From NCBI GenBank assembly GCA_938036655.1, contig CALHQS010000055.1:1-43995 (forward strand): a stretch of DNA of 43,995 nt. Reading direction: 5' to 3'. Under the pieces are notes generated by a model. That model did no database searches, was not told where the DNA came from, and saw only the letters and a list, made by a program, of their open reading frames with translations. This DNA is from an uncultured Candidatus Altimarinota bacterium. GTDB taxonomy: Bacteria > Patescibacteriota > Gracilibacteria > BD1-5 > UBA2023. Position numbers and translations under genes: made by a program. Of the stretch, positions 1,788 through 37,500 are shown in pieces (the stretch's first letter is position 1; each line of letters opens with the position of its first letter).

Positions 1788-4700
1788 TTACTTGAAGTTT
1801 CTCCAAGTCTTGAGATTCCATCCGAGACCATTTTCTGCACGCTTCAAGAAGTATCGGATAATTCCGCGTCCTTCATCCGCATCCTTATGGCTGAAGAGCT
1901 CCATTCCGACTGAGATCCATCCGTCTTTGTAAAATGTCTCAAAGATTGGAGCATATTTTCCATCAATCAAGCTGTCCCAAACTGGACCACCAGGCCCACT
2001 TGACGAACGAGTCACAAGAGGAGGTTGTGGCTGTGGCTGTGGTTGTGGAGTTGGAGTTGTTCCATCATTCTTTGTGAGTTGGCCAATGAGTTGTGTGAGT
2101 TCATGTACGAGACCATCACGTTTTGTTACAGTGAGAGTTGCTGTGTCATCAAGAGCTGCTTTGGCTTCAGTAATCTTGTTCTGAAGAGCTGTTTTGTTGG
2201 CATCTGCTACTGTTTTTGGATCATTGAGAGCAGTTTCTGCTTCAGTGATTTTGTTCTGAAGATTAGTTGTGTCGATGGCTGTTGTATCTTCTTTTGTACC
2301 AACAAGCACCACCTGAGTCACTGGCTTCTTGATCACACGCTCTACGGCAGCAGTATGTTTAAGAACTACACCAGTTTTAGCATTTTTGAGATCGCGGTAT
2401 ACGATTTCTTTTTTACCTTTTTGACCTGGCGTTTTGATTTGTTTTTCACCTTTCTTGAGAGTATCAGTCTTTTCTTCAGTGATTTCAAAATTAATTTCTT
2501 CTTCTGTCTTGACAGCATCATACACAGTACGAAGCGTACCAACACGAACGGTTCGTTCTACTGGACGAACATCTGGATTAGCGATTTCGTATTCGATTTC
2601 AAATGCATCTTTGAGTGCTACTGGCATTTTTTCGTAACGAGTCAGATCGTTGATAGTTACCCCTTTCATCGCAATTTCTTTCTTTGATTCGAGTACTTTA
2701 CCCGCAGATGTACCAGTGGACACGATATAATCACCGAGCAAAAGTCCGTCCTTATCGTCTGTAAGATTTCCGAGCTTATAGTAATGAGTTTTGAGATCAG
2801 GATATGGATCAAGTACATTACGACCTCCTTTGTTAGCTGCAGCTATAATGGCATTATTTACTGCGGCCTTACCGACTTTGCGAGCTACTGAGACATTGAC
2901 AAGAGGCTTATCTTCAACTGTCTGTCCGAGTGGAAGATTCTCATCAATGATTGCTGTCATACGAATAGGAAGTTCTTTTGAAGAATCTTCTGTCGTTTCT
3001 TCGGCCATACGGGTTAGAGCAAAGTTTGTACGAGCATCATCCTTAAGAGTGCCCGCTGTAGCCGTTACATCAGCACTGTATTCTGCATCTTCATATGCAT
3101 CCATTCCATCTGTTGAAGTTGCGAGGTTAAGTGGATTTTTGGCAATAAATTCATTGTCACGAGCATAGCGAAGCGTGAACTGACTCGACAATACCCGAAG
3201 TGGCTTCGCTGCCGCAGCTGACGTAAGATCTACGCTATCTACCGTGATTTTGTTTCCCGCAAATACAAACGGCTGAGTGAATTGAAGCATTGATGGGAGA
3301 TTCGATGGCTTTGCACCTGTGTTCATCGTATAACCATTTACTTGCGGTTGCACGGTATGTCCCGTCAAACCAGTTACATTGATAAGAGGTTTAAGCGTGG
3401 CGTATGCTGATACGATTTTCCCCATATCAATCGCGTTACCAGTCATTTCGATTTTTTTGGCATTTGTATTGATCGAAATCACTGATTCTTGATTTGATGA
3501 CTTACCAATTACTGATTCTTTGAATTTGATGTTGTTGTTATTGAATTTGAGAGAACCATGGAATTTGTTCTGTCCCATTTCGGTTGTTTTTCCATCAGTA
3601 GTCGTGAGACCAACATTTCGTGTTGTTTCAGAAATATTGATTGGAGCATATTTTCCTACTTCCGCAACAATGCGATCAACATTTACTATGTTGTTAGTAA
3701 TGCGGATATCACCAGAACCGTATCCAATACCATTAGAGAATTTGCTAAAATCTTTTTGGAATTCTCGCCCAAGTTGCTGCCCATCAAGAGCGCTATTGAT
3801 GATTTTAAAAATATTGTTTGCAGAAACTCCTGAGATATCATTGTTATCGATGATGAGCTCATAATCAAGGTATGGTTCCTGCATACGAACCAACATCGCA
3901 TTGGCAATGTATGATTTTCCGTCGTGCGTGTTTCCTGATTCATCAAGTCCGCGAATCGTGTTGCCACTGATTTCAAAGTGACCTCGTGAACCATCTGTGC
4001 TAAGACGACGAGCCTTTTCGTTTGTCTGCAAATGAATCGCTTCAAACTGAAGATAGTCTCCATGAGGGTCAAATGCCCCATTGAGATGCAAATCATCGCG
4101 TTCCAGACGATTGTGTGTATCCTGGAAAACAGTGTTATTTCGAATCGTTACATTTTCCATTTTGAAAGTACGATTGTACACAGAAATACCAAGCAAACGG
4201 TCACCGTGCGAAATATTGTTTTCAATGAGAATATTGTCACCATCGTGGATATCAAGACCCTTACGGTAGTTGTGGCTTGTGAAGTTGTTGCGGAAAGTAA
4301 TATTGTTGTTCATAGAACCCGCTTCCGAAGCAAAACCATAACCAGTTCCACCAGATCGTGTATGCCCGTTTTCGTATGACACAGAATTACTGATTTCAAA
4401 TCCGTTCTGATATGAAAACTGAACACCCGCTACACGGTTTTGATACAAAATACTGTTTGTAACCTTGTTTCCTTCCATCATGCGAAGCACGCTAGCATCA
4501 GTATAATCACCACATCCTTTGTCATTAAGGCGCGTTATACCTGCAAGATTTGCAGCCACACAATAAGAAATAGAACGAAGTGTTCCACCAATATTAAGTT
4601 TTTTCACACCATTGTATGCTGATGTGAATCGCACACCAGCCTTATTGGCACCAGTCACTTCAACATTATCCACTGTTACATGCTGAGAATCACTCACATG

Positions 4701-5672
4701 GATACCGTCTACTTTTCCATGATATGGGAACCCTTTCACATAAAAGGCTGGATCAAGGTCGCCATTGCGCTTGATGCGAAGTGAAAAATCTTTCACAAAG
4801 AAATTGTCATGATCTTCCACGAGAAGCACCGCATGGTCACGATTATCAGTATCGTTTTCATTTGGATTCCATGGTTCACCAAACTGTACAAGGCTTGTTG
4901 TAATAGTTGTTGTTGCAAGACCATCACCGAAGAATCCTTTTACATGAGGCAATTCTTTGTCGATTTTAATCTGCTGGAAAAGCCCATCCTTTCGATAAAT
5001 TGGGAAGATAATTCCGTGATGTTTTTTCTTATCAGAATCAGTATATTCTACTACGCCTTCTTCTACATAACTAATTTTTTTAAATTCTTCAGGAGTAATA
5101 TTTGCTGGATTAGCAACACCAGCGAGTGTCGCTCCACTAACTTTCTGACCAAGTCCACTATCGTATGTACGAAGTTCGTAGTGGTCAAGCACTGCACCAT
5201 CACGGGCAATATTTACCACACCAGAAACTTGCACCGCTACACCTCGAGTTTCCTGACCATTCTGAACAATGATCGTATTATTCGCGGCCTGAAGCGTTGC
5301 TACTACTGCTGGAGTATCATCCTGATTATCTTCTGTATTAAGTCCAAAATCACGAGCGTCAAGATAGAAAACATTATTTTCTTTATCAAAATATACTGGA
5401 TAATTCACTTCTGAACCATCAGCTGTTTTTACAGTCACACCAGAAGTGGTATCAATTGGTGTTGCCTGAGGTTTTGCTGTTGTAGTAGCTGCTGGTGCTG
5501 CTGGAGTTAGTGTCGCAGGAACAGCTACTACTGGGTCACTTTCTGCGGCCAATACTGAATAGGTTACATGGTTAGAAAGAATTGGCGATGCCATAACTGC
5601 GGCGATCATTGCCATACTTCCAAGACGGGCGTTCATTCTAGTAGAACGAGGCTCTGCTGTCTGTTTTTTCAT
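1788..5672 (-). CDS. Large secreted surface protein: signal peptide, right-handed beta-helix (pectate-lyase-like) repeats, G5 domain, helical repeats, PQ linker, basic C-terminal domain
   Basis: Uninterrupted 1294-aa ORF. N-terminus MKKQTAEPRSTRMNARLGSMAMIAAVMASP. Beta-helix motifs such as NNITFRNNFTSHNYRKGLDIHDGDNILIENNISHG. G5-like block EINFEITEEKTDTLKKGEKQIKTPGQKGKKEIVYRD...VVLVGTKE. Repeats LQNKITEAETAL / LQNKITEAKAAL. PQPQPQPQP linker. Visibly more GC-rich than its neighbours. Confidence 0.85.
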   Translation of the reverse strand: MKKQTAEPRSTRMNARLGSMAMIAAVMASPILSNHVTYSVLAAESDPVVAVPATLTPAAPAATTTAKPQATPIDTTSGVTVKTADGSEVNYPVYFDKENNVFYLDARDFGLNTEDNQDDTPAVVATLQAANNTIIVQNGQETRGVAVQVSGVVNIARDGAVLDHYELRTYDSGLGQKVSGATLAGVANPANITPEEFKKISYVEEGVVEYTDSDKKKHHGIIFPIYRKDGLFQQIKIDKELPHVKGFFGDGLATTTITTSLVQFGEPWNPNENDTDNRDHAVLLVEDHDNFFVKDFSLRIKRNGDLDPAFYVKGFPYHGKVDGIHVSDSQHVTVDNVEVTGANKAGVRFTSAYNGVKKLNIGGTLRSISYCVAANLAGITRLNDKGCGDYTDASVLRMMEGNKVTNSILYQNRVAGVQFSYQNGFEISNSVSYENGHTRSGGTGYGFASEAGSMNNNITFRNNFTSHNYRKGLDIHDGDNILIENNISHGDRLLGISVYNRTFKMENVTIRNNTVFQDTHNRLERDDLHLNGAFDPHGDYLQFEAIHLQTNEKARRLSTDGSRGHFEISGNTIRGLDESGNTHDGKSYIANAMLVRMQEPYLDYELIIDNNDISGVSANNIFKIINSALDGQQLGREFQKDFSKFSNGIGYGSGDIRITNNIVNVDRIVAEVGKYAPINISETTRNVGLTTTDGKTTEMGQNKFHGSLKFNNNNIKFKESVIGKSSNQESVISINTNAKKIEMTGNAIDMGKIVSAYATLKPLINVTGLTGHTVQPQVNGYTMNTGAKPSNLPSMLQFTQPFVFAGNKITVDSVDLTSAAAAKPLRVLSSQFTLRYARDNEFIAKNPLNLATSTDGMDAYEDAEYSADVTATAGTLKDDARTNFALTRMAEETTEDSSKELPIRMTAIIDENLPLGQTVEDKPLVNVSVARKVGKAAVNNAIIAAANKGGRNVLDPYPDLKTHYYKLGNLTDDKDGLLLGDYIVSTGTSAGKVLESKKEIAMKGVTINDLTRYEKMPVALKDAFEIEYEIANPDVRPVERTVRVGTLRTVYDAVKTEEEINFEITEEKTDTLKKGEKQIKTPGQKGKKEIVYRDLKNAKTGVVLKHTAAVERVIKKPVTQVVLVGTKEDTTAIDTTNLQNKITEAETALNDPKTVADANKTALQNKITEAKAALDDTATLTVTKRDGLVHELTQLIGQLTKNDGTTPTPQPQPQPQPPLVTRSSSGPGGPVWDSLIDGKYAPIFETFYKDGWISVGMELFSHKDADEGRGIIRYFLKRAENGLGWNLKTWRNFK
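2023..2048 (-). repeat. Hexanucleotide microsatellite (TGTGGY x4 on the plus strand) encoding the PQPQPQPQ linker
   Basis: ggttgtggctgtggctgtggttgtgg read directly from the sequence, inside the surface-protein CDS. Confidence 0.7.
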
Positions 5673-32684: not shown

Positions 32685-34931
32685 ATGATTCTTTGACTCA
32701 AAGACAAAGACGCTATTTCGCGTCAAATTGTCGAAAAAACATACGAAATTGCCGGCAAGAAAATCACTTTTGAAAGTGGTCGTTTGGCGCTTTTTGCACA
32801 AGGTTCAGCCGTGATTCGTGATGAAAATGGGAATTTTTTGTTGACGACAGCTGGCATTGGCCAGCCAAAAAGTGGCGATTTTTTCCCGCTCACAGTAGAA
32901 TATCAAGAAAAATATTACGCCAGCGGTAAAATCGGTGGAAATCGCTTCCAGAAGCGAGAAGGTCGCCCAAGCGAAGCAGCCATTTTGAATTCTCGATTGA
33001 TCGATCGCCCGATTCGTCCGATGTTTCCAAAAAATACTCGCACCGAAGTGCAGATTATTTCGACGATTATGTCATCTTCTGGTGCATCAGATTTTGGTTT
33101 TTTCGGAATTACTGGTGCGAGTCTTTCGCTTATGCTCGCTGGCGTGAATGATTTTGAAGGACCAATCGCGGGCGTACGAATCGCAGCTGATGAGGCGGGT
33201 AATTTTATTTTTGATCCGACATTTGAAGAACTCGAAAAATCGCATCTCGATTTGACGGTTGCGGGAACGGCCGAGACGATTACGATGGTGGAAAGTCAGG
33301 GCCATGAAGTGGACAATGATCTTATGATTCGTGCGTTTGAATTTGCGCACAAAATTATCGTGGAATTGTGCCACGCACAAAGCGATTTTGTAGCGGAATA
33401 TCAGAAAATTTATGAACTTCCAAAAGTGGAACTTTCGCTTGCAGAAGAAAATACCGAACTCATAGAGATGACTAAAAATTTGGTTTCTCGTGAAATTTTG
33501 GACGCATTTTATGGTCTTGGAAAAACCGAATTTTATGACAAATATAATGAAGTAGTTGCGGATTTTATCAATATCATTGCCGCCAAAAAATTCGAAAATC
33601 TGAACGAAAATGAAACGATTTCGCTCGAAGAAATACTTGAAAAAATTGATCAAAATGCGATTGCGGACGCTCTCAAAGATGCTATCAAAACAGATATGCG
33701 AGCGCGAGTTTTGGAGCAAAAAATTCGCCTTGATGGTCGCACACCAAACGAAGTGCGGCCCGTTCGTGCAAGTACGGGACTTTTACCACGTACACACGGA
33801 TCAGGGCTTTTTGAACGTGGTGTAACGCAAGTACTTTCTGTGACGACGCTTGGTGGGCCGAGTGATATTCAGATTGTGGATGATATGTATGAAGAAGATC
33901 TCAAACGATATGTGCATCACTACAATTTTCCACCATTTTCCGTAGGTGAAGTTCGTCCGCTTCGTGGAGTTGGTCGTCGAGAAGTTGGGCACGGGCGCCT
34001 TGCAGAAAAAGCGCTCGAACCAGTGTTGCCATCAGAATCAGATTTTCCATATATGATTCGCGTTGTTTCTGAAACGACAACTTGTAACGGATCTTCTTCT
34101 ATGGCGTCCGTTTGTGGTTCTACAATGTCGCTCATGGATGCTGGTGTTCCTATCAAGGCGATGGTAGCAGGAGTGGCGATGGGAATGATTTTTGACGAAG
34201 AAACAGGAAAATTCGTGATTTTGTCAGATATTCAGGCGCAGGAAGATTTTTTGGGTGATATGGATTTTAAGGTGGCTCGCACTGAAAAATGAATCACTGC
34301 CCTACAAATGGATTGTAAAATTTCTGGATTGACAATGGAAGTGATTCGTTCGGTATTTAATCAGTCAGTTGAAGCAATTTCGTATATTATGGGTGAAATG
34401 AAAAAGAGTCTTGACGCGCCTCGTCCAGAACTTTCTCCGTATGCGCCATTTTTGCTGGCAATTTTTGTGCCAGAAGACAAAATGCGCGAAGTGATCGGAA
34501 AAGGTGGTGAAACTATTCAAGGAATTGAAAAAAATTTTGGTGTGGAAGTGGACTTGCAAGATGATGGACATTGTACGATTACTGCCAAGACGCAAGAATC
34601 GGGAAAAAAGGCACTCGATTTTATCAAAAATATTTTGAAAGATATTGAGGTTGGCGACGAGTACGAAGGGAAAATTACCAAAATTCTGGATACGGTTGGG
34701 GCGATTGTAGAGCTCGGAAAAGGAAAAGAATGAATGATTCATATTTCCAAATTTGGTGTCAAAGAACGCGTTGAAAATGTAAACAGCGTTGCTAAGATTG
34801 GTGAAATTGTTAAAGTTCGTGTTTACAAAGTAGAAAAAGATAAGAATCGTATTGGTCTAGAAAAAATTGTTCCGGAAGCAGAAAAAACAGAAAAAATCGA
34901 AAATTCAGAACAAACAACAGAAAAAGCATAA
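32685..34931 (+). CDS. pnp: Polyribonucleotide nucleotidyltransferase (PNPase), 748 aa
   Basis: Three sense TGAs (32694, 34290, 34731) join the ORF pieces. FKVARTEK[TGA]ITALQMDCKISG (consensus ..GITALQMD..), a KH domain, then GKGKE[TGA]MIHISKF (S1 domain). Confidence 0.93.
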
Positions 34932-34973
34932 TTTTTATTGACAAAAAAATTATTTAATGTGTATTATACGAGT

Positions 34974-35186
34974 CATCGAGTGTTCGCTTACTTGGTGATG
35001 AGGATTTGGAAATTTTGTGGTTTTAGAGTTTGCCACTGCATGGCCCCGCCTGATGGGAAATTTCCAAGTACTGGTGCGGATGCAAAGCCATAACCGCACG
35101 ACTCCTTACGGGATAATCAGGCACCAAGGATGGATGGACGCCCGCCATCCTCACTCATCTCTCATTGTTGAATGAGAGATTTTTAT
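34974..35186 (+). ncRNA. Unclassified structured RNA, copy a (~210 nt)
   Basis: Promoter TTGACA-N18-TATTAT (34938-34967). Terminator tctctcatt-gttg-aatgagaga plus T-run (35158-35185). Contains no ORF. Shares the blocks CCCgCCTGATGGG and AATCAGGCACCA with copies b and c. Confidence 0.6.
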
Positions 35187-35251
35187 TGTTTCAATTTTTC
35201 AAAAACCTAAAAATTATTTGACAAATAAAAATTTTTATTTAAAATACCGAG

Positions 35252-35536
35252 GCCAATTGGCAGATCGTGCTTAGCCAGCTCGGATTTTTCATGGATATGC
35301 AACAGGATGGAATATTTTGTTTGATATAGGATTAGTGAAACATGCTTTCAGAACGCCCTACTAGAACAAAATTAGTAAATCCACCCTTGCCTAATGGGGG
35401 TTGTGTATCGAGAACATAGCAGGTCGTTCCCTGTGAGTGGTCTCAACCTTTCTCTATTAGAAACAGAATTAGGCACCATGAGGTTTAAAACTGTACCTCT
35501 ACCGATTCACTCCTTCTTTTGAAGGGGTTTTTTTAT
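35252..35536 (+). ncRNA. Unclassified structured RNA, copy b (~285 nt)
   Basis: Promoter TTGACA-N16-TAAAAT (35218-35245). Terminator ctccttc-tttt-gaagggg plus T-run. Blocks CCCTTGCCTAATGGGGG and AATTAGGCACCA. Confidence 0.6.
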
Positions 35537-35594
35537 TTTTCGAAAAATTCTTAAAATTTATTTGATAAATACAGATTTCTATTTACAACACTCT

Positions 35595-35948
35595 AGCCAG
35601 TGAGAAGCAAGGGTTTCGAGTGGTCTTTCATCAATGTTATTGTTTGGCTGGAGGAGTTTATGTTGGATTCGGGACGTGGTTGTGCATGGAACACCCGATA
35701 CAACATGAATGAAATCTGCCCTTGCCAGATGGGGGGGCTCAGCAATGGTTTGTGTGAGTAGCCTGTTCGCCTACAAATACAAACATCCATGTCAGTCAGT
35801 ATCCAAACGACTATCTGGGACCGAACAACAAAATCACGGAGATCATGCAGTGCCTTTCTTGATGGAATTGTTTGAAAAGGTAGAATCTTGGCACGAAAAG
35901 GTTTAACTGCACCTTTTCCAAGTCCTTCTTCGGAAGGGCTTTCTATTT
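35595..35948 (+). ncRNA. Unclassified structured RNA, copy c (~350 nt)
   Basis: Weaker promoter TTGATA-N16-TACAAC (35562-35589). Terminator gtccttc-ttcg-gaagggc plus T-rich tail (35922-35948). Blocks CCCTTGCCAGATGGGGG and AATCTTGGCACGA. The 3' part is about 75% identical to copy b. Confidence 0.55.
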
Positions 35949-36003
35949 GACGAAAAAAAATTTTATATATAATGAGATTGTTTTATTCTTTTTTCAGAAA
36001 AAT

Positions 36004-36726
36004 ATGATTTCAAAAAATATGACGGTTGGGGAAATTGTCGCAAAAAATGTTGCATTCGCCGACATTTTTGAAAAATACGGCATCGATTTTTGTTGTGGTG
36101 GTGATGTTTCTTTTATAGAAATTTGTGAAAAAAATAATCTCGACGCAGAAAAAATCATCGCAGAACTCCAAAATCTTCCCGAAAAACAAAGCGCGGATCA
36201 TAATTTTGAAAATTTTGATTTGGGTGATTTGGCTGATTATATCGTGGATGTACATCACACTTTTGTGCGTGAAAATATTCCACGAATTGACGAATATTTG
36301 AACAAAATTTGTCGCGTGCACGGCGAGAATCATCCAGAACTTTTTGGTGTTTTGGAAAATTATGAAGCCGTTCGCGAGGAACTGCTCGCGCACATGCCAA
36401 AGGAAGAAAATGTGCTTTTCCCATACATTCATCGCCTTGTAGATGCTGAAAAAAATAATATCGCGCCAGCGAAGCCACCATTTGGAACAGTGAAAAATCC
36501 GATTCAGATGATGGAAATGGAGCACGACAATGCGGGCGATGCGACCAAAAATATTCGAAATCTGACGAATAATTTTACACTTCCAGAAGACGCGTGTAAC
36601 TCGTATCGAATCACTTTTGAGCTTTTAGAAAATTTTGAAAAAGATTTGCATGTGCACATTCATTTGGAAAATAATATTTTATTTCCGAAGGCAATCGCGC
36701 TCGAAGAAAAATTGTGGAATGCATAA
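36004..36726 (+). CDS. ric: Iron-sulfur cluster repair di-iron protein (RIC/ScdA/YtfE family)
   Basis: MTVGEIVAKNVAFADIFEKYGIDFCCGG (ScdA_N) followed by a hemerythrin-like domain (HHTFVRE..., HPEL, EENVLFP, MEMEHD, HLENNILFP). Confidence 0.88.
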   Translation: MISKNMTVGEIVAKNVAFADIFEKYGIDFCCGGDVSFIEICEKNNLDAEKIIAELQNLPEKQSADHNFENFDLGDLADYIVDVHHTFVRENIPRIDEYLNKICRVHGENHPELFGVLENYEAVREELLAHMPKEENVLFPYIHRLVDAEKNNIAPAKPPFGTVKNPIQMMEMEHDNAGDATKNIRNLTNNFTLPEDACNSYRITFELLENFEKDLHVHIHLENNILFPKAIALEEKLWNA

Positions 36727-36741
36727 TTTTTCCAAGAAAAA

Positions 36742-36768
36742 ATCTCCGATTTGGAGATTTTATTTTTT
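36742..36768. terminator. Bidirectional terminator atctcc-gattt-ggagat plus T-run
   Basis: Between ric (stop 36726) and the convergent DJ-1-like gene (stop 36773). Confidence 0.65.
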
Positions 36769-36772
36769 GAGT

Positions 36773-37441
36773 TCAGCAATCACTCGCGCGCGCAATCGCT
36801 TTGGAACTAAACGGATTTTGTCCAGTAATAAGGTTTTCATCAATCACAACCTTGGAGCTCATAGGGAAAAATACTTTCTCATAATGCGCGCCATGATTTT
36901 TTAACGCTTGCTCGAGATTGAATGGCACCAATTTTTTGCGTTGTGCAAAAAATTCTTCCAGCCAACTAAATCCTGTAATTTTTTTATCAGCAATCGAATT
37001 TTTACCATTAGAAATCCTCACATTCAGTAATCCGCCAACACCGCGACACACAGCCGAAAGAATTTTCCTTGCTTCATAATGTATTGCAATTATCGCTTGC
37101 AAATCAGTATTTTCAGGGAAATCATACATGGTTCCGTAACCGCCCGAGAGATATATTGCATCAAATTTTTATCACGAAATCTCCGCAAGGCTCGGGGTAT
37201 TTTCAAGAATTTTTCGAAATTTTTCATCATTCCAATATTTTTTGGTTACCGTATCGAGCAATATCGGGCGCAGACTTTCCGACTCAATGGGAACTTTACC
37301 ACTCAAAGGGCTCGCGATGGTCATCTCAATTTTTTCTTGTCTCGCCAAATCATACAAATGCGTAATCTCAGAGGGCCGCAATCCCGTCGGCGTTCCATTA
37401 TCATAAAGCGACTGACTCGTTACAATTCATAAAATTTTCAT
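36773..37441 (-). pseudogene. DJ-1/PfpI (Hsp31-like class I glutamine amidotransferase-like) gene interrupted by an in-frame TAA
   Basis: MKIL[TGA]IVTSQSLYDNGTPTGL...LAEIS[TGA][TAA]KFDAIYLSGGYGTMYDFPEN...LSAVCRGVGGLL. Both halves are in one frame. The TAA at 37169-37171 sits inside the conserved core just before DAIYLSGG. Confidence 0.6.
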
Positions 37442-37471
37442 ACTATTTTGTCAAAATGTAAAAATTACAAA

Positions 37472-37491
37472 AATCCCTGCATTTGAGGGAT
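37472..37491 (-). terminator. lysS terminator atccct-N7-agggat with a T-run on the minus strand
   Basis: Hairpin 10 nt beyond the lysS TAA (37501-37503). Confidence 0.65.
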
Positions 37492-37500
37492 TTTTCGTTT

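Follow-up and report, generated by a model that had tools for sequence, protein, structure and literature searches.

Homologous small RNA (sRNA) genes can be found side by side in bacterial genomes. In the Qrr1-5, LhrC1-5, streptococcal csRNA, PrrF1/2 and OmrA/B clusters, each gene has its own promoter and Rho-independent terminator, and the RNAs, which are 50-150 nucleotides (nt) long and form simple hairpins with a short conserved single-stranded seed, share a conserved motif and have diverged elsewhere. The raiA-motif/ModT, OLE, ROOL, GOLLD, 6S and Ms1 families comprise stand-alone structured RNAs of a few hundred nt that contain pseudoknots, are not gene leaders, and were of obscure function when found. 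The riboswitch aptamers SAM-IV, SAM-I/IV and THF-I have a P1 helix that encloses two arms and is followed by a hairpin, with the loop of one arm pairing with the 3' tail before the terminator. The Y RNAs YrlA and YrlB, also paralogous and structured, tether the Rsr protein to polynucleotide phosphorylase (PNPase). To our knowledge, very few non-coding RNAs beyond the universal ones have been described in the candidate phyla radiation (CPR), whose roughly 1-Mb genomes retain little dispensable content. Here we analyze a 43,995-nt stretch of DNA from an uncultured Candidatus Altimarinota bacterium (contig CALHQS010000055.1 of assembly GCA_938036655.1, positions 1 to 43,995; hereafter, the window), which harbors an array of three consecutive RNA units, designated a, b and c, between the genes pnp and ric.

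The three units share a hairpin whose loop is complementary to a strand near the 3' end, and this helix covaries among the units and their orthologs. We estimate a probability of roughly 0.55 that they are a family of small RNAs, confined to one clade and arisen by tandem duplication, that act in trans and depend on their fold.

Anatomy of the three units

Positions 34932-35948 contain three plus-strand units of approximately 214, 285 and 352 nt, each located between a sigma-70-like promoter and an intrinsic terminator, with the following features:

34938..34967, plus strand: promoter a, TTGACA-N18-TATTAT, an 11/12 match that begins 7 nt past the pnp stop codon
34974..35187, plus strand: unit a RNA, about 214 nt, with the 5' end placed from the -10 hexamer
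35044..35057, plus strand: block 1 of unit a, P3 CCC-[C GCCUGAU]-GGG, with loop 35048-54 as the pseudoknot 5' strand
35116..35123, plus strand: block 2 of unit a, AUCAGGCA, the pseudoknot 3' strand
35157..35187 (scan hit 35157-80), plus strand: terminator a, a 10-bp stem with a 4-nt loop and a T-run, invariant in 10 orthologs
35218..35245, plus strand: promoter b, TTGACA-N16-TAAAAT, an 11/12 match
35252..35536, plus strand: unit b RNA, about 285 nt, with a core nearly invariant in 8 distinct orthologs
35384..35399, plus strand: block 1 of unit b, P3 CCCU-[ UGCCUAAU ]-GGGG, with loop 35388-95 as the pseudoknot 5' strand
35468..35475, plus strand: block 2 of unit b, AUUAGGCA, the pseudoknot 3' strand, with 8/8 pairs in all orthologs
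35509-36 (scan hit 35509-28), plus strand: terminator b, with G-U/G-C/A-U variation at one pair among orthologs
35562..35589, plus strand: promoter c, TTGATA-N16-TACAAC, weaker than a and b and sharing the repeat D1/D3 with promoter b
35597..35948, plus strand: unit c RNA, about 352 nt, with its parts ordered as in b and P5 at 35895-918
35719..35734, plus strand: block 1 of unit c, P3 CCCU-[ UGCCAGAU ]-GGGG, with loop 35723-30 as the pseudoknot 5' strand
35885..35893, plus strand: block 2 of unit c, AUCU(U)GGCA with one bulged base, the pseudoknot 3' strand; the relative L007 has AUUUGGCA opposite UGCCAAAU
35920-48 (scan hit 35920-41), plus strand: terminator c, conserved in all orthologs

Unit a proceeds from a leader hairpin (34974-97) through P3, P4 (35074-99), the pseudoknot 3' strand and P5 (35132-50) to the terminator. 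In unit b, P1 (35294-303/35400-409) encloses P2 (35305-82) and P3 and is followed by P4 (35410-44) and P5 (35480-99), with the single strand that carries the pseudoknot 3' strand sitting between P4 and P5. Approximately 150 nt and several hairpins separate P3 from the pseudoknot 3' strand in unit c. The units have a guanine-cytosine (GC) content of 41-48%, compared with 37.7% for the window. On the 5' side of P5, the window copy of unit a is the only one with a 4-nt GGAT duplication (35128-35131), reading AAGGATGGATGGAC where the nine other copies read AAGGATGGGC.

The promoters are consensus matches, and a match alone is no proof of initiation. In the relatives of this genome described below, promoter a retains TTGACA with a -10 element of TATTAT, TATGAT or TATCAT, and the -35 element of promoter c is TTGACA in most, with L007 having TTGACA...TAAAAT. 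All three terminators consist of 8-10 bp stems and T-runs that are conserved in all orthologs. Over the 2 kb scanned, raw counts of promoter-like sites (9 versus 5.1 in shuffled sequences) and terminator-like sites (3 versus 1.9) are not above expectation; the case for these elements is based on the quality, spacing or placement, and conservation of the sites, not on how many there are.

An earlier note on this DNA had proposed the three units, and its coordinates are all exact on the sequence, including those of the pairings of GCCTGAT (35048-54) with ATCAGGC (35116-22) in a, TGCCTAAT (35388-95) with ATTAGGCA (35468-75) in b, and TGCCAGAT (35723-30) with ATCT(T)GGCA (35885-93) in c. The promoters that it described as TTGACA-N16/18-TAxxAT in a and b and as weaker in c score accordingly, and the strong intrinsic terminator that it assigned to each unit was recovered by our scan, which finds three at the expected 3' ends. 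Block 1, which it considered common to the units, is found in all of them and nowhere else in the window: the pattern CCC-N1-2-GCC-NN-AT-GGG, with its two spacings, has three occurrences in 44 kb, and none in 100 shuffles. Block 2 by itself is not rare.

The same note found no credible open reading frame (ORF) on the plus strand and no recognizable RNA class in the region, and both statements agree with our results. A protein-coding origin was rejected, with genetic code 25 included: the longest ORFs shift in strand, frame and length between orthologs, insertions or deletions (indels), of 1, 2 and 4 nt, occur frequently, and of the longer frames that span the region under code 25, none is conserved among orthologs in frame or length. 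Searching the whole window against Rfam 15 at gathering thresholds gave a tRNA-Gly (32423-96) as the sole match. In E-value mode, the best hit in 34800-36100 has an E-value of 0.52, far below threshold, and with single units as queries, b has no hits and a has a best E-value of 3.9. The Rfam families without a match at gathering thresholds or at E < 0.5 include RNase P, tmRNA, SRP, 6S, Y RNA, riboswitch classes, raiA, OLE, ROOL/GOLLD and ribozymes. ARAGORN predicts one tRNA in the window, outside the RNA region.

The loop-to-tail pseudoknot and a proposed common fold

A common plan can be drawn for all three units: a leader hairpin, P1 enclosing a long arm P2 and the short P3 (CCC/GGG), P4, a single strand, P5 and the terminator. 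The P4 region grows from 26 nt in a and 35 nt in b to about 130 nt in c, where it comprises several hairpins. The P3 loop has 8-9 nt with the form (U)UGCC-NN-AU, and its complement AU-NN-GGCA is located 57-150 nt downstream in the single strand between P4 and P5. In a compact alignment of both blocks from 17 distinct copies, 98.5% of the cells in this helix are paired, and two of the eight pairs change on both sides (14/41, U-A/A-U; 15/40, G-C/A-U/G-U). As a control, the 3' strand was slid by 1-3 columns, which reduced pairing to 46% or less, and the observed covariation score was reached by none of 500 shuffles. Every copy keeps its loop complementary to the distal strand, and substitutions are seen on either side, as expected of a pseudoknot. 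Among orthologs of unit c, both strands change in L007 and L005 (GCCAAAU/AUUUGGC versus GCCAGAU/AUCU(U)GGC in the window), and in unit a all ortholog changes in the helix stay paired via G-U, except C74 of the window copy.

The shared plan pairs 96-99.7% of cells across the three units, and compensatory changes are seen in each: in unit c they affect P4, in unit a P5, and in unit b one P2 pair that goes from G-C to A-U. P3, the pseudoknot, P4, P5 and the terminators are the only parts of the fold that we consider reasonably secure. In unit c, RNAalifold prefers to pair the P1 5' strand (35637-35649) with the block-2 region (35881-35895; alignment columns 39-53 with 285-299) over pairing it with the strand that follows P3. 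This pairing, the only competing helix that emerged when switching pairings were considered, is unsupported; it is a possible alternative conformer that would compete with the pseudoknot, and the few substitutions leave the choice undecided.

The covarying long-range helix claimed in the earlier note is borne out by the 17 copies, with the two pairs switched on both sides. The note's designation of an H-type pseudoknot is too simple, and the element is better called a loop-to-tail pseudoknot that locks a multi-helix junction.

Homology, distribution and genomic setting

Judged by their sequences, units b and c are demonstrably homologous: they match each other by nhmmer in two segments, one around block 1 and the other from block 2 to the terminator (E-values 8e-6 to 2e-3), and their promoter regions are 79% identical. 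Unit a is linked to them by the otherwise unique block 1, a well-placed block 2 with a complementary dinucleotide, the order of its parts, and adjacency, and is probably a diverged paralog. The proposal of three homologous RNAs is thus upheld statistically for b and c, and a is joined to them only via motif, part order and adjacency.

Relatives were gathered by three routes: look-ups with the ric protein, species-representative genomes scanned for pnp, and metagenomes scanned for a DNA pattern. L001-3, L005, L006, L007, L090, L112, L148 and L156 carry the array in the same pnp-[a,b,c]-ric order, and L134 and L167 contain fragments. L005 (GCA_015473165.1, BNJT01001902.1) was excluded from counts because the assembly is full of single-base indels, with pnp and ric fragmented and the gene not translating to the indexed protein. 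All carriers belong to one tight clade, the oral GN02-873 clade, with pnp at least 97% identical. Homologs of the units, whose existence the earlier note had made a test, are present as orthologs in every close relative, and each retains all three. The next pnp proteins in a collection of 5.8 billion proteins are only 77-78% identical, with none between about 97% and 78%; in these outgroups (pnp 77-78% identical or less), the array is absent beside pnp, which is followed by recG or other genes.

Searches beyond this clade gave no further member. Profiles used with nhmmer over pnp neighborhoods of other Gracilibacteria and Patescibacteria had no match with an E-value below 2. A covariance model of all three units (R1), which by construction scores its own units a, b and c at E-values of 3e-18 to 2.5e-27, has its next hit at an E-value of 2.4 in about 420 kb of such neighborhoods, and scanning pnp neighborhoods with a loop/tail-complement descriptor retrieved noise only. 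IMG/VR yielded two matches, both by chance, and phage and plasmid collections none. Among 94 loci in JGI metagenomes, six belong to the family, all representing the same oral locus. Three loci (L110, L121, L166) were rejected as homologs, being in fact a hairpin upstream of tRNA-Ser in a GC-richer organism. The metagenomes Ga0123341 and Ga0123342 also contain an abundant 149-nt tandem repeat with AAATCCTCCCTTGCCCCATGGG (L085, L093, L106, L107, L117, L119, L120, L124, L136, L139-141, L151, L163, L168), unrelated to the units, which may be a satellite or encode a repeat protein. Across the pnp neighborhoods, metagenomes, and virus, phage and plasmid collections searched, the family is known only from the oral GN02-873 clade.

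Unit a has 10 distinct orthologs with 91-96% identity. Between the window and L007, identity is 91% in a, 92% in b and 85% in c, and at third codon positions 79% in pnp and 88% in ric. The core of unit b, which spans about 130 nt between the P2 end and block 2, has few substitutions and one 2-nt indel across 8 distinct orthologs. This high identity, the near-frozen core of b and the GC content of the units are signs of purifying selection on a and, above all, on b. Conservation is looser in unit c, where changes in L001 and L156 weaken P3 or the pseudoknot. The flanking genes show mosaic divergence from the window: at third positions, ric is 98-99% and pnp 85-92% identical in L090, L112, L148 and L156, and the pattern is reversed in L006 (ric 87%, pnp 93.5%), which suggests strain recombination with breakpoints in or near the RNA array.

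The immediate neighbors of the array are as follows:

32685..34931, plus strand: pnp (PNPase), a single 748-codon frame with two in-frame TGA codons read as sense
approximately 35946-73, plus strand: ric promoter, TTGACG...TATAAT, overlapping the tail of terminator c
36004..36726, plus strand: ric, a di-iron protein with ScdA_N and hemerythrin domains (Pfam PF04405, PF01814)

The TGA codons of pnp are located at 34290-34292 and 34731-34733, with the second at the conserved glycine of the S1 motif (KE-G-MIHIS). As both are read as sense and the motif then becomes KEGMIHIS, the genome uses code 25 (TGA = Gly), and ORF calls with translation table 11 therefore break up many genes in the window. 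The closest public genome is Candidatus Gracilibacteria bacterium GN02-873, with a pnp protein 99% identical, and a human-oral metagenome-assembled genome has one 97% identical. The window encodes gatB, a decarboxylase, a cysteine-synthase/rhodanese protein, a CobW-type GTPase, an M16 peptidase, a nitroreductase, xth, a methyltransferase, tRNA-Gly(GCC), pnp, the RNA region, ric, lysS, hisS and glmS; the surroundings of the RNA region are ordinary chromosome. No reverse transcriptase, Cas, transposase, TROVE or toxin gene was found near the array among the genes of the window. No Shine-Dalgarno-like motif is present in the 30 nt before 16 start codons checked (for example, 32655-84, 35974-36003 and 40850-79). 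The leaders of the checked genes are A/T-rich, and some start codons directly follow a -10-like TATAAT, both hinting at mRNAs with very short leaders or none. Elsewhere in the window, a 1294-amino-acid secreted protein encoded on the minus strand (1788-5672), with a right-handed beta-helix region, a G5 domain and then a PQ-rich tail, is probably a surface adhesin or enzyme of an epibiont-like organism. Downstream of ric, approximately 770 nt (36727-37500) separate its terminator (36739-61) from the bidirectional lysS terminator (37469-95), and relatives have just one ORF called there, of 70 amino acids on the minus strand.

Interpretation and comparison with known RNAs

In the explanation that we favor, the three genes would be tandem duplicates that encode a single kind of structured small RNA, specific to the GN02-873 lineage of oral Gracilibacteria. 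Each would be transcribed from its own A/T-rich sigma-70-type promoter and end at its strong intrinsic terminator, giving products of approximately 210-350 nt that would not be leaders of any ORF. With P1 enclosing P2 and P3, and the P3 loop pairing with the single-stranded stretch just before P5 and the terminator, the predicted pseudoknot would tie the 3' tail back to the junction, and the intervening P2 and P4 would vary in size and sequence among paralogs. Function would depend on this pseudoknot-locked junction, and the stable, structured RNAs would work in trans, with a protein or small ligand as the probable binding partner, and not as simple antisense regulators. The variable arms would make the paralogs differ in specificity. 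As is seen in compact H-type pseudoknots, the G-C-rich P3 stem could be lined by an A-rich stretch, here the one just 5' of the distal pseudoknot strand. Since what follows units a and b is in each case a predicted promoter and not a gene, trans action is likelier than leader-type control. No terminator was found between pnp and unit a; terminator a is thus probably where pnp transcripts stop as well, and unit a may double as the pnp 3' end. More tentatively, the locked junction could form a specific binding pocket or active site, making the units a new fold-dependent class (a trans-acting aptamer, a ribonucleoprotein core or a ribozyme) peculiar to code-25 Gracilibacteria, whose three paralogs recognize different partners via their P2 and P4 arms; we are doubtful of this stronger version.

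Several results weigh against this explanation. Promoter b is altered in 4 of 9 relatives, with the -35 element deleted or the spacer shortened in the region equivalent to window 35205-35235: an 18-nt deletion (approximately 5245-5290 in L001) removes its TTGACA in L001-3 and L090, and a 3-nt deletion in L006 and L112 leaves a 13-nt spacer with the -10 element TAAAAT retained. Either unit b needs no such -35 element, or it is transcribed otherwise in these strains. The transcript ends and abundance are ones that we infer. Unit a is detected neither by nhmmer profiles of b or c, nor by R2, a covariance model for which only b and c were used and which carries b-specific columns that limit the meaning of this failure. 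As no homolog was found outside one clade, the family has no independent evolutionary support. The earlier note had looked to a larger alignment for covariation, and the pseudoknot helix does covary across the 17 copies, but with orthologs only, the signal is marginal in c (three pairs changed on both sides, equaled by 17 of 500 shuffles) and not significant in a and b (one both-side pair each, not distinguishable from shuffles). This weakness results from the copies being about 94% identical, and larger alignments carry little variation because homologs occur within one tight clade only. Folding z-scores are modest (-2.8 for a, -1.75 for b and -1.5 for c), P1 and P2 of a and P1 of c have competing pairings and some pair-breaking substitutions, and no candidate partner gene is linked to the units within the window. 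Interest in the finding is limited by how narrowly the family is distributed, how weakly the orthologs covary, and the absence of a functional lead. None of the outcomes that the earlier note would have taken as a refutation was encountered. Taken together, the results support, although with limited power, the interpretation of the units as an unclassified family of pseudoknotted RNAs.

The units could instead be base-pairing regulatory sRNA paralogs similar to Qrr, LhrC1-5, csRNA or PrrF, with the pseudoknot as a scaffold and the arms or single strands as seeds for mRNAs. Tandem paralogs that each have a promoter and terminator are the established layout of such genes, and each unit has a C/U-rich stretch (CUCCUU, CCUUUCU) 20-35 nt upstream of its pseudoknot 3' strand. 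However, the window genes lack a Shine-Dalgarno sequence with which a C/U-rich seed could pair, and the longest complementarity of the units to the rest of the 44-kb window is 12-13 nt, which is at chance level. The units are also far larger and more structured than typical seed-type sRNAs, and in b the whole 130-nt core is invariant instead of a short seed. We therefore regard this as unlikely, and less likely still is a cis-acting array in which riboswitch-like or attenuator units serve as conditional terminators, read-through from pnp or the unit promoters tunes ric, and a is also the pnp 3' untranslated region. Consistent with that arrangement, pnp and unit a are not separated by a terminator, the units are co-oriented with ric and always directly upstream of it in the clade, promoter b is dispensable in some relatives, and aptamers with their expression platforms, such as SAM-IV, are known to combine a junction and a loop-to-tail pseudoknot commonly with a terminator after them. 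Yet ric has its own promoter immediately after terminator c, promoters and not ORFs follow a and b, the terminators are strong and invariant, no riboswitch family matches, and no alternative antiterminator pairing was found in the units. For the same reasons, with a and b followed by the promoter of the next unit, c by that of ric, and no alternative terminator pairing seen, the units do not have the layout expected of a riboswitch or cis leader.

Recent tandem duplication with some copies now decaying would make the conservation a product of short divergence time and the complementarity inherited, not selected. All known copies do come from one tight clade, in L001 and L156 unit c has changes that break pairs of P3 or the pseudoknot, and within-ortholog covariation is not significant. 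Such a history is nevertheless improbable, given that the pseudoknot dinucleotide differs among paralogs and is complementary in every one, that a and b are more conserved than neighboring third codon positions, with the core of b nearly invariant, and that every relative retains all three units. The remaining candidate, a tRNA-like molecule with a pseudoknotted acceptor stem comparable to plant-virus tRNA-like structures, is the only one that can be excluded for practical purposes. In a and b, a helix of 7-8 bp is followed by A-CCA, and in unit a the distance from the first paired base to CCA is 79 nt, but ARAGORN and the Rfam tRNA model find nothing in the region. The CCA is not conserved (ACCG in L007_a and L148_a, CC deleted in L001_b, ACGA or ACAA in c), the interior of 72 nt in b and 154 nt in c is unable to form a cloverleaf, and a hairpin and the terminator come after the CCA.

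Other identities were also tried and rejected. An anti-Shine-Dalgarno sRNA is incompatible with the A/T-rich leaders and missing Shine-Dalgarno motifs of the genes checked, and a CsrB/RsmZ-type sponge for CsrA is contradicted by GGA enrichment in a alone (8 versus 3.1, P ~0.006), not in b or c. The layout and neighboring genes are unlike those of type III antitoxin arrays, retrons, guide RNAs and Y RNAs, and a role in an Rsr-PNPase complex was discarded with no TROVE protein among the window genes and no Y_RNA match in Rfam.

Returning to the favored explanation of trans-acting, fold-dependent RNAs, a full kilobase given to three paralogs with strong predicted promoters, one with an almost frozen core, suggests that RNA serves an important function in Gracilibacteria of the human mouth. 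Should a protein or metabolite bind the fold, the units would form a new class of RNA and offer a way into the physiology of a recoded lineage that has not been cultivated; if they are ordinary regulatory sRNAs, they would be a modest addition to the catalogue.

In comparison with the Y RNAs YrlA and YrlB, the units are likewise several paralogous structured RNAs, here in an array directly after pnp. Unlike them, they have no rsr/TROVE gene in the window, no Y_RNA match, and no long stem joining the 5' and 3' ends, and the adjacency of array and pnp is lost in the nearest outgroups. The overall arrangement of P1, arms, following hairpin and loop-to-tail pairing before the terminator resembles SAM-IV, SAM-I/IV and THF-I, but none of the conserved core nucleotides of these RNAs is present in the units, Rfam gives no match and no switching helix was found; units a and b also have no downstream ORF, and every unit has a putative promoter of its own. 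As in the Qrr, LhrC, csRNA, PrrF and OmrA/B clusters, homologous genes with individual terminators and putative individual promoters lie side by side, sharing a motif and diverging elsewhere. In contrast to those short seed-bearing hairpins, the units are 210-350 nt long with a multi-helix junction and a covarying pseudoknot, and neither a seed nor a target was found for them in the 44-kb window, where Shine-Dalgarno sequences are lacking. Their predicted size, pseudoknots and probable independence from gene leaders are shared with raiA-motif/ModT, OLE, ROOL, GOLLD, 6S and Ms1, to which they have no sequence or structure match in Rfam 15. Those families span whole phyla, whereas the units occur in a single clade as three tandem paralogs. 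The general kind, tandem paralogous sRNA genes and orphan structured RNAs, is known; the particular fold is not, and it is found in a recoded CPR lineage for which almost no such RNAs have been described.

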